Shown: positions 6,005 through 56,200 of the stretch, piece after piece | Numbering within the stretch: the first letter of the stretch is position 1 | Layout: each line of letters begins with the position of its first letter | NCBI GenBank assembly: GCA_951406725.2 | Contig: OX597827.1 | Span: forward strand, 6,138,001-6,202,000 | DNA length: 64,000 bases | From: Octopus vulgaris | Taxonomy: Eukaryota | Direction of reading: 5' to 3' | Position numbers and translations under genes: made by a program | Notes under the pieces: model-generated | Told to the model about the DNA's origin: nothing | Seen by the model: the letters and a program-made list of their open reading frames with translations, nothing else | The model's database searches: none

Positions 6005-7428
6005 TATTGGTAAAAACGGTAAGATAACAAAAGAAAGAAAGAGACATCAATATTATGTAAATAGAGGAAATTTATCTATAAAATAATATGTTACATTTAC
6101 TCAATAGTCAAGATAAAACTCTGAGTTTCAGATGCCGAAGTGGAAATCCACAACACCATCTCTTCGGTTATCTGGCCATCTGATATATATATATATATAT
6201 ATATACACACACACACAGGGTTTGAACAAAATAATGAAAACCCCTTAAAATTTCCAACAAATTAATTTTAATATGGGGTAGGACCACCTTTGGCAGTAAT
6301 TACAGCTTGAATTCCACAAGGTATAGACTCATACAAAGTTTGAATTATTTCCAAAGGAATTTTTGTCCATTCTTCAGCTAAAACAGTCTCCAGTTCTTCT
6401 AGTGATGATGGTGGAGGATATCAACTCATTACTTGTTTTTCTTAAATGCACTATAAATGCGTATGAGACGTGTATCAGCCAAGTTTGTACCAAAACTTCT
6501 TTCAGCTGACCAAGAAGATATTTAGGTTTCAGTTGCACAAGATCTCCTTGATTGCGTCGAGAACAATGAAAACTTTTTGAAAATAGATAATGGGAGGTGA
6601 ATCGTAGATCTATGGCTATGACCACGAATCAAAGGCTCAGTCTCCTGAGGGGAAGACCCCAAACTCTCTGAGACCAAATGGATCAAAGCAACAGGAAGAC
6701 ACTGTTGATCATTTTTTACGACTACAAGGGGATTATTCATCATGAGTATGTTCCACCTGGTCAGACAGTAAACAAGGAGTACTGCCGTGATGTTTTGTGG
6801 CATATGTGGGATGCTATTTGTCGGAAAAGGCCACAACTGCATGTATCCGGGGAGTGGCAATTGCACCATGACAACGCACCTGCCCATTTTGTGCAGCTTG
6901 TGCAGCAGTTTTTGGCTAGGTATAGCATTCTCCAGGTCCGACAGCCACTGCATTCCCCATATCTCACTCCTTGCAACTTTTTCCTCCTTCCAAAAATTAA
7001 TGCGACAATCACACGCTACACATGTTCCTTCCAAGCACTGCTGTAAACAACAGAAGTGAGCTGGAATGTTAACACTTAGTGTCCATGCACAGTAGAGTTC
7101 AAGGTCAGTCTCTTCTAAGCAGCTTCACTCTGTGTGCTTTAGCTTTGTCACTATTGTAACATCCGGATACTTATTGATCAGACCATTTATGTAGATATAT
7201 ATATATATATATATATATATATATATAACGGTATTTTTACATAGCGTTTTTTCAGATGGCCAGATAACCGAAGAGATGGTGTTGTGGATTTCCACTTCGG
7301 CATCTGAAACTCAGAGTTTTATCTTGACTATTGAGTAATTGTACATATTATTTTATAGATAATTTCCTCTATTTACATAATATTGAGGTCTCTTTCTTTC
7401 TTTTGTTGTCTTACCGTTTTTACCAATA
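6005..7428. mobile_element. Inverted pair of about 175-bp hammerhead-containing repeats (6005-6183 and 7252-7428) enclosing Tc1/mariner fragments
   Basis: The arms are near-identical reverse complements. Each has AGATAA-CCGAAGA-GATG...CATCT-GAAAC-TCAGA-GTT-TTATCT (6111-6173 minus, 7262-7324 plus). Same family as the copy at about 53105-53310. All copies adjoin (TA)n. Confidence 0.75.
6420..7185 (+). mobile_element. Mariner transposase relic with right TIR
   Basis: GIIHHEYVPPGQTVNKEY...WQLHHDNAPAH...HSPYLTPCNFFL matches the mariner HDNA and YSPDLAP motifs. The terminus CCGGATACTTATTGATCAGACC is shared with the element at 26963-27783. Confidence 0.85.
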
Positions 7429-8282
7429 TATATATATATATATATCCCCTTATCACAGTACTTCTGAAGCCAGTTCTTTAGGCTCTCAAGCTCAAGGTGA
7501 CCCTCAAGAAAAGTCTTACAATCTTCCCTTATATGTTTCTTCCATTCTGCTCTTTCCAAAGTTAGTTCTTCCCACTTCTTTACATTGCTCTGCAGTTCCT
7601 TCAGTTTACCTTTTATGCAACTTTTATCTCCTTTTTGTGGTTTATGCTGAAAATGCTTTCCTGTGCATTACTCACTATAGAACACTTGCACTGGAATCCC
7701 GTTATCTTCCTTATACACAACAGGGCCTGACCAATCTCTGAAGAGATATGATGAGTGACTGGGTGCTTATATATCCTGCCTTTGCAAGGACTTCTATGTC
7801 AAGTCTTTTTACTTTGCAACTTGATGTTAAGCATGTGTTTTGAACATTTTGGGTGAAAGCACTCAAGCAGCTTGAGATGCCTTCATTTTAGAAGATGGTA
7901 TATTTCAGACGAGTTCAATAAAACTGTTTGTATACATACCTTGTAAATGCTCAACTTTGTATGTCAGATATTGCGGCCAAGAGAGAGAAAATATTGTATT
8001 GGTAAGGGCATGTGATGCATACAGATCAAGGTAGGGCTATAGTTCAGTGCCAATCAGTTAATATTGATGGAACTTGTAGAATAAGACTCCCAGGAATACT
8101 TGGGATAAAGTTAGTAGGAAGGCTCATCTCAAGATTTCAAATCTCACAGAGGACAAGGGATCACAATAATTGGCAATACATGGTGCTCAAAATGTATCTG
8201 TGATGGTGAAATTGAAATTCTGGAAGCATGGTTTCTGGCAGGAAAGGATTATTCCCCTTACATCAGTTCTGGCTATGGTAAT

Positions 8283-8474
8283 ATTTGGAGTTGTGGCAGG
8301 CATATTCAATGAATAGGGAATTCCAAGTTTGTTGTGGGAAATGTTTTAGATGAGGGCATTGAATAAATACTTCTGTCCTGGAGTTTAAAATGGTTCCCAG
8401 CCCTCATCTAAAATGTTTCCTACAACAAACATGGAATTCTCCATTTGCTGAATAGGCCCACTGCACCTCCCAAT
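8283..8474. repeat. Imperfect inverted repeat (arms about 75 bp, spacer about 40 bp)
   Basis: GAATTCCAAGTTTGTTGTGGGAAATGTTTTAGATGAGGGC pairs with GCCCTCATCTAAAATGTTTCCTACAACAAACATGGAATTC. Confidence 0.75.
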
Positions 8475-52982: not shown

Positions 52983-53209
52983 CTGTGAAAAGAATAACAA
53001 AAATATTCTTATCTAAGGATTCACCTCAAAAGACTTTTAAAAACTGTATTTTAACATGTGTGTATGTGTGTACAGATGTTAAAGAATGATGATTATATAT
53101 ATATATTGATAAAAATGGTAAGATAACAAAAGAAAGAAAGAGACCTCGATATTATGTAAATAGAGGAATTTATCTGTAAAAGTAATATGTAGCAATTATT
53201 CGGTAGCCA

Positions 53210-53272
53210 AGATAAAACTCTGAGTTTCGGATGCCGAGGTGGAAATCCATGCCACCATCTCTTCAGTTATCT
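53210..53272 (-). ncRNA. Type I hammerhead ribozyme motif, sense to the protocadherin pre-mRNA (intron after the large exon)
   Basis: Stem I AGATAA/TTATCT. CTGAAGA at 53266-53260. Stem II GATG...CATC(C). GAAAC at 53228-53224, stem III ACTC-A-GAGT, GTT triplet at 53218-53216. Confidence 0.65.
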
Positions 53273-56200
53273 GGGCATCGGGAAAATGCTATGAAAAATG
53301 ACCGTTATACAAAGGGAAATTACTGTGTTATTGACCGCTATTAAGACAAAAGAGCTATTCTAATGACCATTAAGTAAGGTAAGAGGGTAAAAAATTCATA
53401 GTATTCACGTAAGTGTGCCTGTTCATACCTACACATGTGTGCCTGCACACCCACATGTGTACGCATACATTCATCCACCCTCACTAGAAAAACGTATACA
53501 TCATCACTTGCATCCTTCGCCAAATGTATATGCATATACATACAACCCCCCACACACACACATGCACACCGTAAAAGTTCATACATACGTCTACATGTGT
53601 ACAGGTATAAGAAAAACCAGGATTAAGGGTAACAATACAGAAAAAGGCATAGATAAGTATACAAAGAGTAAATCACGTTTATATACGCACACACCCATAT
53701 ACACACATACCTGTATACCGTATGTATAATCCTTTTTGTGCGTGCATGTGTGTGTGCATATATAGACGTGTGCAGGTATGTGCGTATATGGGTGTGTGTG
53801 TGGGTGTGCATGATAGGTTTCAAACAAAAGGTTGTTTGATAGTACAATATCTTTCTAATTAGCTGAGTAGAGTCAGTTATTTAGTATGTATTATCCCAGG
53901 AGGAAAAGTTTGGTTAGCTTAAATCAAAGATTGTTAGTGATTGTGAAACCAACTAAAAATAGCTTAGAACTGTTGGAATATTGATTAGAACAGAGAAGTT
54001 ATGTAAAAATATTTAAAAAATTGACATTGGAGTGGCTGTGTGGTAAGTAGCTTGCTTACCAACCACATGGTTCCGCGTTCAGTCCCACTGCGTGGCATCT
54101 TGGGCAAGTGTCTTCTGCCCAATTTAGGTTCCAATTTAGGCATATTTAGGTTCCATGCATCACTGCTCAACTATATTTTATATAATGTGTTGTAATGACT
54201 CATACATATATACACGCAGGAGTGGCTGTGTGGTAAGTAGCCTGTTTACCAACCACATGGTTCCGGGTTCAATCCCACTGCATGGCACCTTGGGCAAGTG
54301 TCTTCTACTATAGCCTCGGGCCGACCAAAGCCTTGTGAGTGGATTTGGTAGACGGAAACTGAAAGAAGCCCGTTGTATATATGTATATATATATATAAGT
54401 GTGTGTGTATATGTTTGTGTGTGTGTGTTTGTCCCCCTAGCATTGCTTGACAACCGATGCTGGTGTGTTTACGTCCCCGTCACTTAGCGGTTCGGCAAAA
54501 GGAGACCGATAGAATAGGTACTGGGCTTACAAAGAATAAGTCCCGGGGTCGATTTGCTCGACTAAAGGCGGTGCTCCAGCATGGCCGCAGTCAAATGACT
54601 GAAACAACTAAAAGAGTAAACAAGCATTTCATTTGATAGAGTAATCTGAATAGCAACGATTTCAAAAACTACGACCTGAAAATTTGAACAGATGTAAATG
54701 CGTCTTATTATTCTCTTTGTTCAATGGAAAATATAAATGGAGTGTCCTCTTTCTCTCTCTCTCTCCTTTTTCTCTTTTTTACTTGTTTCAGTCATTTGAC
54801 TGCAGCCATGCTAGAGCACCGCCTATTAGTCAAGCAAATGAACCCCAGGTCTCATTCTTTGTAAGCCTAGTACTTATTCTATCGGTCTCTTTTGCCGAAT
54901 CACTAAGTAACGGGGACGTAAACATACCAGCATCGGTTGTCAAGCGATGCTGGGGGGACAAACACAGGCACACAAACACACACACACACATATATATATA
55001 TATATATACATATATATACATATACGACAGGCTTCTTTCAGTTTCTGTCTACCAAATCCACTCACAAGGCTTTGGTCGGCCCGAGGCTATAGTAGAAGGC
55101 ACTTTCCCAAGGTGCCACACAGTGGGACTGAACCCGGAACAGTGTGGTTGGTAAGCAGGCTACTTACCACACAGCCACTCCTGCGCCTAACATATTTCCT
55201 GTTACATTGAATATTTGTAAAAGAATAAGTGCATGAAGAGAACTGAGAAGAAATTGACATTTAAATATCAAACATGAACAAGAATGTAGCTGTAATGGTA
55301 AGACTACACAGCCATTGTGGGTGTGGTAAAGCAATTGATAAATATTCATGCACAATGCAGCATGTATTTATAAGCAAAATTAGTTGTTTTGAAGCTTTTG
55401 ATGTGAAAAGCACCTTGGACATGTGTCTTCTACAATAGCCTGAGGTTGAACAAAAGCTTTGTGAGTGGATTTAGTAGATGGAATCTGAAAGAGGCCTATC
55501 ATATATATATATACATATATATATATATATATATATATATATATATAGAGAGAGAGAGAGAGAGAGAGAGAGAGAGATACATGTTGGGTTAAGGAATAAT
55601 TCATATATGTATATGATCTTTGCTAAATAAACACTAAGTCCTTTAGATTCCACAACTGAAATTTCTTCTCCAAGTCTAGTAGAGTAAGAACAAGATCAGC
55701 TTAGAGGAGCTCCCAAGGGCAACCAGGCTTAAATTCCTCAGTTTAATATATATATATATATATATATATATATATATATATACACACACACATATGTATA
55801 TGTATATATATATATATATATATATATATATATATATATATATATATATATATATATGTATGTATATATACATATATACATATATATATGACAGGTTTCT
55901 TTCAGTTTCTGTCTATGGAATCCACTCAGAAGGTGCCATGTAGGGGGATTGAACTGAGTACCATGTGGATGGGAAGCAAGTTTCTTACTACACAGCCATA
56001 TCTGCACCTATGTGTATATACATATATATATATATATATATATATATATATATATATATATATATATAGGCATAGGAGTGGCTGTGTGGTAAGTAGCTTG
56101 CTTATGAACCACATGGTTCTGGATTCAGTCTCACAGCGTGACACCTTGGGCAAGTGTCTTCTACTATAGCCTCAGGCCAACCAAAGCCTTGTGAGTGGAT

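Follow-up and report, generated by a model that had tools for sequence, protein, structure and literature searches.

Why does a 64-kb stretch of octopus DNA beside a protocadherin exon hold a dozen sequences that resemble hammerhead ribozymes (HHRs), where do they come from, and do they cleave in the animal? The window studied here is the whole stretch of 64,000 nucleotides from Octopus vulgaris. Our main reading, to which we assign a probability of about 0.85, is that the motifs are HHR-bearing 3' ends of Penelope-like elements (PLEs). This was established for six of the nine families found and is likely for the other three; the short stubs probably derive from reverse transcriptase (RT) that stopped early. 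Hammerheads in the pseudo-LTRs (pLTRs) of PLEs are a known phenomenon, already listed for another octopus, Octopus bimaculoides (PMC8557442), and PLE structure, (TA)n bias and Hydra motifs are known from the same source. The role of the HHR in endonuclease-bearing (EN+) PLEs is stated there to be unclear. In the one biochemical study, the HHR was dispensable in vitro and RNA-seq contained no cleaved ends (PMC11167929).

Hammerhead loci in the window

The following features were mapped.

6001-6183, minus strand: 3' end of family A2 (Hydra PLE), U4C HHR, core 6167; predicted cut after 6117
6210-7190, no strand assigned: Mariner-type transposase fragment (Transposase_1, E 1.8e-9) and (TA)n between the two A2 copies, outside the PLE
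7226-7432, plus strand: 3' end of family A2, U4C HHR, core 7268; predicted cut after 7318; inverted relative to the 6001-6183 copy
21025-22127, plus strand: 3' fragment of family H, a probable Neptune-type PLE, U3-A8 core 22043; predicted cut after 22072
22470-23100, minus strand: 3' end of family F, inverted arm, core 23012; stem II split by an insertion
23105-23265, plus strand: 3' end of family F, core 23166; palindromic stem III, decayed stem II; predicted cut after 23239
23285-23483, plus strand: 3' end of family G, core 23351; 4-bp stem III, fold-back inverted arm 23285-23350; predicted cut after 23389
28118-28480, plus strand: 3' end of family C PLE, core 28257; inverted arm 28118-28216; predicted cut after 28332
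29888-30260, plus strand: inverted pair of family E, cores 30001 (minus, intact stem III) and 30085 (plus)
30568-30785, plus strand: 3' end of family D PLE with inverted arm, core 30663; predicted cut after 30738
32715-32830, plus strand: 3' end of family B PLE, core 32717; truncated 2 nt upstream of the core
43065-43262, plus strand: 3' end of family I PLE, core 43145; two private changes adjoining the core
53100-53440, minus strand: 3' end of family A1 (older Hydra subfamily), canonical CUGAAGA core 53266; predicted cut after 53216
57318-59834, minus strand: large protocadherin exon, 839 aa between stops, five Pfam cadherin stretches, ending near a GTAAGT donor-like site

A sequence-only reading had proposed a dozen minimal type I HHR motifs, and this was borne out: all 12 loci have the type I layout or belong to a family that does. 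They are confirmed as real type I hammerhead loci, in nine repeat families. The shuffled control suggested in that reading places the real window far above chance. A strict descriptor, fixed ahead of the family analysis, found five cores against means of 0.04-0.15 (maximum 2) in 3 x 100 dinucleotide shuffles, and none in the reversed and complemented window. A relaxed descriptor, adjusted once the families were known, gave 11 matches against a mean of 0.83 (maximum 3) in 60 shuffles; nine fall on the loci first noted and two, elsewhere, are chance-like. Rfam returned no match in the window at the gathering score, and the best 150 matches of an E-value scan (374 more ranked lower) were all driven by microsatellites or hairpins. 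Predicted minimum-energy folds differ from the full active HHR fold, and single-strand folding gave z-scores near zero (-1.2 to +0.2).

Several copies are damaged. Stem-breaking changes occur in the 23166, 30085(+) and 43145 copies. Stem II at 23012 is interrupted at about 22668-22975 by some 320 bp with a ATGATGTAA-like duplication. At 32717 the truncation has removed most of the 5' stem I, so an extended stem I considered there was rejected. The stem III first assigned to 23166 was likewise discarded, as a chance GAAAC within the decayed loop. The core region of the 6001-6183 copy is identical to that of an intact tandem element (L231).

Conservation of core and stems

The type I consensus core (PMC3088659) is C3 U4 G5 A6 N7 G8 A9 / G12 A13 A14 A15 / U16 H17. 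Families A1, B-G and I carry it. Among the top matches it is intact in 15/19 copies of A, 29/29 of B, 5/19 of C, 16/19 of D, 11/18 of E, 11/19 of F and 19/19 each of G and I, counts that are biased upward, as copies were taken as the best matches to the window copy. Subfamily A2 (C4) and family H (U3-A8) depart from the consensus as variants. The CTGANGA core given in the sequence-only reading does not hold at 6167 and 7268, which read CCGAAGA (U4C), and at 22043, which reads TTGAAAA (U3-A8). Both variants are family-wide. U3-A8 is found in 14/19 copies of family H and also in family M, and is described in the same source as a covariation known to be active; across 12 aligned rows the 3-8 pair is C-G in ten and U-A in two. 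U4C is also fixed in a family unrelated to A2 (4/4 copies), with the other core positions kept.

The suggestion that independent families preserve the fold holds well. Save for a 24-nt match between C and I, the nine family queries share no alignable sequence, and the core is enclosed by three stems, of which stem I is open, and these remain paired from one unrelated sequence to the next; stem II of family F is weak. The covariation looked for is present: the first pair of stem I is Watson-Crick in 12/12 rows, with four pair types, in an alignment whose family E row is shifted by one base. Of eight families tested, seven have self-complementary stem III segments.

Penelope-like elements as the probable source

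Six families (A, B, C, D, H and I; 8/12 loci) continue upstream into RT/GIY-YIG open reading frames (ORFs), which sustains the Penelope-type origin first suggested and identifies the window copies as 5'-truncated 3' ends (pLTRs) of autonomous PLEs, not retrozymes. In family B the HHR lies downstream of RT and EN at L051, L242 and L243. Family C has EN upstream on the same strand in 3/19 loci, and inverted in one. EN is contiguous with the HHR over about 2 kb in family D, and in family I (L240) the ORF is flanked by two direct HHR repeats. Tandem pLTRs are otherwise seen in the arrays L230-L232 and L235. The ORFs of families B, C, D and I are 30-41% identical to that of family A over RT or EN stretches. 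Pfam scores for the PLE ORF are weak (GIY-YIG E 0.037, RVT_1 E 0.004), so the EN+ PLE assignment rests on motifs and on the alignments of Craig et al. Family H has RT and EN upstream, and the window copy itself retains an EN remnant at 21072-21505 (tblastn E 9e-29); it is 79% identical to L264 over about 1.1 kb. By-eye comparison of fragments with Fig. S2 of PMC8557442 suggests a Neptune type, with a CX2-5CxxC linker, a long spacer before GIY-YIG and EN C-terminal to RT.

Family A appears, by motifs, length and (TA)n, to belong to the Hydra clade, for which RWK, DKT, a CxCX5C linker, CxxC, CxH, the absence of GxKF, a length below 3 kb and (TA)n are diagnostic (PMC8557442). Its intact 708-aa RT-GIY-YIG ORF has RWK at 37, DKT at 114, CxCX5C at 557, CxxC at 660 and CxH at 691, and lacks GxKF. 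In its tandem arrays, whose period is about 2.59 kb, 205 nt separate the stop codon from the HHR, and another 212 nt separate the HHR from the next ATG. Published Hydra-clade elements, including Hydra-1_Obim (Craig et al. 2021, PMC8557442), share with family A a single ORF of RT and C-terminal GIY-YIG in less than 3 kb, the Hydra motifs, (TA)n targets and, at the 3' end, a type I HHR whose short stem III is nearly palindromic. The Hydra-1_Obim protein resembles that of family A by eye. They differ in that tandem arrays with pLTRs are found here and that families B and I exceed 3 kb. The sequence-only reading knew of no such motifs at a cephalopod protocadherin locus; the HHR of an octopus PLE (Hydra-1_oBim) had in fact been printed (PMC8557442, File S2), although its stems differ from those here, and the Hydra rows of that file lack the U4C of the youngest subfamily described below.

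A survey of minimal HHRs in metazoan PLEs (Cervera and de la Pena 2014, PMC4209133) describes a similar picture: divergent families with, per genome, thousands of motifs that mostly stand alone, a long stem II, a palindromic stem III, pairs on opposite strands and, in Schistosoma, U3-A8. The sections consulted mention neither a family-wide U4C nor cDNA that ends at the cut site, both of which are seen here.

The 3' ends and the retrozyme question

The motifs had also been read as short non-autonomous retroelements akin to retrozymes. This is not supported, given coding sequence upstream in six of nine families, 5' ends that are scattered, not fixed, across the copies examined, and the lack of any short head-to-tail HHR tandem in the window or in the family match lists. 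Non-LTR retrozymes of animals (PMC7229834; bioRxiv 10.64898/2026.07.22.740005) have a type I HHR with a dimer-type stem III and are pLTR-derived, as here, but form short non-coding head-to-tail tandems and circRNA, whereas the octopus loci are solitary or inverted 3' stubs, contiguous in six families with coding PLEs. The frequent (TA)n setting and inverted arms were correctly observed: eight of 12 loci are in inverted arrangement (C, D, E, G, the F pair and the A2 pair), and an inverted copy lies upstream in 79/180 copies. The 3' ends fall 110-113 nt past the cut site in 19/19 copies of family A, and in two classes in family B, 34-41 nt in 18/29 and 149-157 nt in 10/29 (the PLE 'tail'). PLEs were already known to target (TA)n, to carry inverted arms and to have fixed 3' tails.

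Families E, F and G could, improbably in our view, be in part non-autonomous HHR retroelements, retrozyme- or SINE-like, mobilized in trans by PLE proteins. Walks upstream from their sampled loci (18-75 per family; for F, 19 loci and two extensions) yielded no PLE ORF. Family G is young (98-99% identity), and its 5' sequence is non-coding and rich in microsatellites over more than 1.5 kb; vertebrate retrozymes derive from pLTRs, according to the same preprint. The three families nevertheless resemble the ORF-linked ones: their 5' truncation varies, inversions occur, and the 3' ends are fixed and joined to TA; the F and G ribozymes follow, by eye, the Hydra pattern of Craig's File S2; and none of the sampled loci revealed a short tandem. 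Other sequences met upstream were set aside: the family G walk entered a nested, unrelated Neptune-type element before the microsatellite-rich DNA, the family E walk ended in inverted tails and a few hundred non-coding bases, and an unrelated-looking Neptune EN lies upstream of one family E locus.

For the PLE 3' ends, the following sequence of events is proposed. (i) The GIY-YIG endonuclease of the element would nick (TA)n DNA. (ii) RT would start at either of two fixed positions, which lie 20-210 nt beyond the HHR cut on its 3' side. (iii) It would copy mostly uncleaved multi-unit RNA over a random length; having initiated just downstream of the ribozyme, it would usually halt early, which probably leaves the short 3' stubs. 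(iv) Two cDNAs would often be joined head to head, giving inverted arms. (v) The HHR would cleave a minor fraction of templates, probably as a dimer or aided by protein; cDNAs from these would run off precisely where the RNA is cut. For a PLE, PMC11167929 describes RT that initiates internally, the extension of both strands and a protein-assisted HHR, dispensable in vitro. That element, the Poseidon PLE PAc of Anolis (Frangieh et al. 2024), resembles the octopus elements in RT initiation 3' of the HHR, two classes of 3' end and a mostly uncleaved template. Its HHR overlaps the ORF start, unlike that of family A, whose cut site is 212 nt short of the ATG, and RNA-seq ends are missing from its HHR site, whereas genomic junctions are enriched there in octopus.

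A young subfamily with a variant core

The youngest Hydra subfamily, A2, has a fixed U4C core. Exact genome matches number 3,895 for U4C (A2) against 2,081 for the canonical form, and ORF-linked HHR matches have C4 in 56/57 (overlapping loci counted separately). Intact 708-aa ORFs of A2 are up to 100% identical. The older, canonical A1 differs at five ribozyme positions; A2 also has U for C immediately 5' of GAAA. That A2 amplified with this core indicates that full hammerhead activity is probably not needed for transposition. CpG decay was rejected as the origin of the U4/C4 split: C4 occurs with GGTG in 96/100 listed matches and U4 with GGCG in 68/100 (hand count). As to expression, none of the listed runs with matching assembled contigs is on record as RNA. 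In one run guessed to be RNA, a 2.6-kb contig spans the A2 unit and joins up with itself. Tandem DNA or multimeric RNA would look no different, so this contig was dismissed as evidence for a circle or for expression.

Junctions at the predicted cleavage site

Three of 96 mapped ends (duplicates included) lie between -5 and +10 relative to the cut site, and this led to tests of junctions there. Fourteen A2 junction loci fall at +1, against five at a control position, and among 18 A2 inversion loci seven have their start at +1, where the null expectation is 5-7% (P 2e-5 to 1e-4); the two counts share loci and are not independent. One of the 14 (L460) is accounted for by stem I microhomology. Two of the seven inversions have 3-nt microhomology, and without them the count is 5/16 (P 0.001-0.004). 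Three of the seven are blunt palindromes, lacking microhomology, with both arms ending exactly at +1. Outside the A2 inversion class the footprint is weak: TA-flanked A2 ends are at +1 in 3/23 (P 0.04), with three each at +2, -5 and -11; family B has 1/4; and family G has 2/18 (P 0.02-0.16).

The A2 pile-up suggests rare cleavage in vivo, most templates remaining uncut. Put more broadly, and at slightly better than even odds, the octopus genome may record HHR self-cleavage in vivo: cDNAs of a young PLE would run off at the cut site and be joined end to end despite U4C, and PLE ribozymes would have been tuned down repeatedly in unrelated families (U4C twice, U3-A8 twice) so that a minority of templates is cut.

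It is less likely that the A2 ribozyme is inactive, that cDNA ends at +1 reflect RT stalling at a folded or protein-bound three-way junction, and that A2 spread without cleavage. U4C lowers activity in vitro considerably (PMC3088659), the U before GAAA is a second change, and the best predicted fold is not that of an HHR. Arrays of 4.7-6.7 kb pass through internal HHRs, and PLE insertion in vitro is not reduced by HHR mutants (PMC11167929). A stall at the foot of a helix would, however, be expected near +7 or 0, and none of the 18 inversion loci starts at either position. The three blunt palindromes ending at +1, and the fixation of U4C in an unrelated family that keeps the remaining core, also speak against this reading.

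Neither a fixed U4C core in the youngest Hydra subfamily nor a junction pile-up at the predicted cleavage site was found in print; the searches, on U4C in PLEs and on genomic junctions at PLE HHR cut sites, returned no paper, subscription papers and bioRxiv supplements aside. Octopus offers a natural experiment, with a young family of thousands of copies, an older canonical sister at five ribozyme differences and a junction excess at the cut, together with an inexpensive way to test by computation whether PLE ribozymes cut in the germ line, and at what frequency. Were rare cleavage the explanation, junction catalogues of any genome would be usable as a fossil cleavage assay.

Protocadherin context

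The sequence-only reading had set the motifs around a protocadherin, and it might be asked whether the cluster regulates that locus, for instance by cleaving its pre-mRNA. This is very improbable. The window is dense in descriptor matches (11 in 64 kb, against three in 40 kb of neighbouring DNA, four in 128 kb of unrelated loci and 22 in 288 kb of the outer flanks of fetched loci), but it was selected for this density. The canonical 53266(-) copy lies in sense with the protocadherin, 4 kb past the exon, whereas nine of 13 cores are antisense. The copies differ in age, and several have decayed or been interrupted. A link to the protocadherin is not upheld: HHR-like matches occur in neighbouring and unrelated DNA, and each family has hundreds to thousands of copies elsewhere, on many contigs of the octopus genome.

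Hammerhead loci in the window

All 12 hammerhead ribozyme (HHR)-like loci claimed by the sequence-only reading are present in the window. A strict type I HHR descriptor recovers five cores, compared with means of 0.04–0.15 in 300 shuffles. A relaxed descriptor, tuned after the strict run, gives 11 matches versus 0.83 in shuffles; nine of these are previously claimed loci, and the two extra matches look like chance. The shuffled-sequence control proposed in that reading places the window well above shuffles with both descriptors. No Rfam match at gathering score was obtained for the window. 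Nine HHR repeat families cover all of its loci, with at least 473 to at least 3,147 candidates per family in the 2.8 Gb host genome, counts that are first-look lower bounds.

HHR families and their core positions in the window
Family A: 6167, 7268, 53266
Family B: 32717
Family C: 28257
Family D: 30663
Family E: 30085/30001
Family F: 23012, 23166
Family G: 23351
Family H: 22043
Family I: 43145

Alignable sequence between families is limited to one 24-nt match of C with I; the core and stems are kept in all. Stem I pair 1 is Watson–Crick in 12/12 rows of an alignment that includes two extra families and one family E row off register by a base, and four pair types occur. The stem III segment is self-complementary in seven of the eight families tested, which fits cleavage as dimers; family G has a true stem III of 4 bp. 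Among best matches, the share with an intact core is lowest in family C (5/19) and highest in family B (29/29). Not all window copies are whole: those at 23012, 23166, 30085, 32717 and 43145 carry interruptions, mutations or truncations. Inside a family F ribozyme (22668–22975) sits an insertion of ~320 bp that has (CATTT)n at one end and a duplication of 9 bp; a homologue of it is absent among the fetched loci.

Relationship to Penelope-like elements

In six of the nine families (A, B, C, D, H and I), the upstream continuation is Penelope-like element (PLE) coding sequence, which upholds the Penelope origin proposed from sequence alone. The family A HHR is the pLTR, the HHR-bearing end, of an intact 708-aa RT–GIY-YIG ORF found in tandem and inverted arrays (~2.59 kb). 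By manual count, 16 of 144 scored matches have open frames of at least 710 aa, and intact ORFs share 96.5–100% mutual identity. These ORFs carry the motifs RWK, DKT, CxCX5C, CxxC and CxH and lack GxKF, the combination given for the Hydra clade by Craig et al. (PMC8557442), and are assigned to that clade because of this match. By eye, family A resembles Hydra-1_oBim, an Octopus bimaculoides Hydra-clade PLE whose HHR is tabulated in File S2 of the same paper. Taken with the protocadherin setting, this resemblance suggests an octopod host. Families B, C, D and I are linked to ORFs related to that of family A; at L240, a locus outside the window, the ORF is flanked on both sides by direct family I HHR repeats. 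Family H is Neptune-type, and its window copy still holds an endonuclease remnant. No ORF was found upstream of families E, F and G in sampled loci and upstream walks. The window loci add members to PLE clades already known, with a core variant shared across a whole family, and we put the probability that they are truncated PLE stubs at about 0.85.

Family B and I elements (L051:3549–4955, L239, L240) exceed described Hydra PLEs in length, owing to long stretches rich in asparagine that are inserted between RT and endonuclease. A young Neptune-type PLE with an intact 818-aa stop-to-stop ORF was also encountered (L367:4805–7258, forward strand), repeated at 6.2 kb; its copies are 98–99% identical, a flanking segment has 874 candidates, and no HHR was noticed by eye in its 3′ region.

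Core variants

Family A comprises A1, an older subfamily with a canonical core, and A2, the youngest, with U4C relative to the CUGANGA consensus. The A2 form, with the core CCGAAGA, has 3,895 exact genome matches versus 2,081 for the canonical form, and C4 is found in 56 of 57 ORF-linked HHR matches. Copies 6167 and 7268 belong to A2 and 53266 to A1, with five differing positions in the aligned stretch. CpG decay is disfavoured as the source of the U4/C4 split, since the split is linked to a neighbouring site. U4C also occurs in a family unrelated to A, a tenth HHR family (L009, L040, L194, L325) whose flank copies combine the core CCGATGA with a palindromic stem III (4/4 copies seen). In a viroid, U4C reduces activity in vitro and is still viable (PMC3088659). 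No description of U4C in PLEs was found in the literature searched; the words ‘ribozyme’ and ‘hammerhead’ are absent from the main text of PMC13282606. Family H and one further family resembling it (L091, L156) have a U3-A8 core, like the Schistosoma PLEs (PMC4209133).

Copy structure and inferred mechanism

Among 180 copies examined, 79 have an inverted partner upstream. In these 180 copies each family has its own spacing between cut site and 3′ end, frequently with two classes, and the ends are joined to microsatellite. Such 5′ truncation, inversion, tails and (TA)n bias are shared with described PLEs (PMC8557442 and PMC11167929). All core-bearing stubs retain 20–210 nt past the predicted cut site, and arrays of up to 6.7 kb traverse internal HHRs. 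Together these features point to reverse transcription starting 3′ of the ribozyme, on an RNA template that would be mostly uncut there, although a religated circle would have the same appearance. The same start was reported in vitro for PAc, the Anolis Poseidon PLE (PMC11167929).

The 5′ ends of the two inversion arms usually differ, as expected if two cDNAs were joined, and inversions may have arisen in this way. The junctions of inversions are concentrated at short palindromes that lie within ribozyme stem I or beside it (L181–L199; A2 matches on C1), namely AAGCTT and AGCT in family G and probably TGGCCA in A2. This clustering suggests that cDNA ends anneal there.

Junctions at the predicted cut site

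Of the mapped ends, 3/96 lay near the predicted cut site, prompting a genome-wide test of that position. At +1, the first nucleotide after the predicted cut, 17 junction matches in 14 loci were found among 26 matches, versus five real junctions among 18 at a control position. Short-inversion loci, a set that overlaps the former in loci, start at +1 in 7/18 cases versus a null of 5–7% (P = 2e-5 to 1e-4), and in 5/16 without two ambiguous loci (P = 0.001–0.004). Three of the seven are blunt palindromes on separate contigs, in which each arm stops precisely at +1. TA-flanked A2 ends show no peak there (3/23). In family B, 1/4 ends fall at +1, and in family G 2/18; in one of these, the two arms both start at +1 and enclose a filler. 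Set against ~3,900 core-bearing A2 copies, the 14 loci indicate that such events make up <1%.

As judged from genomic sequence, the A2 excess at +1 suggests a footprint of HHR cleavage; stalling of the reverse transcriptase may also account for it. The scales tip slightly towards cleavage: in-vivo hammerhead self-cleavage would then be recorded in the octopus genome, A2 cDNAs having run off at the cut site and been joined despite U4C, with PLE ribozymes tuned down. Genomic junctions at an HHR cut site were not found described in the literature searched.

Protocadherin setting and other elements

The window adjoins a protocadherin exon, and a second protocadherin exon (841 aa; L055:6431–8953, reverse strand) lies in the flank ~11 kb before the window start on the same strand; the two form a cluster. 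The sequence-only reading had also placed the HHR population around a protocadherin; a locus-specific role finds no support: the window was chosen for HHR density, copies vary in age and state, and 9/13 cores are antisense to the protocadherin. Descriptor density is ~2–5x that of comparison sets, a ratio affected by this choice of window.

Other window features are:
6210–7190 and 27096–27461: Mariner/Tc1 transposase fragments, one between inverted A2 copies
34122–34263: near-perfect ~140-bp palindrome with its centre in a common short repeat; its best miRNA match in Rfam falls short of the gathering score
Many places within 16746–62842: repeat of ~450 bp, >12 copies at 75–91% identity, probably a SINE
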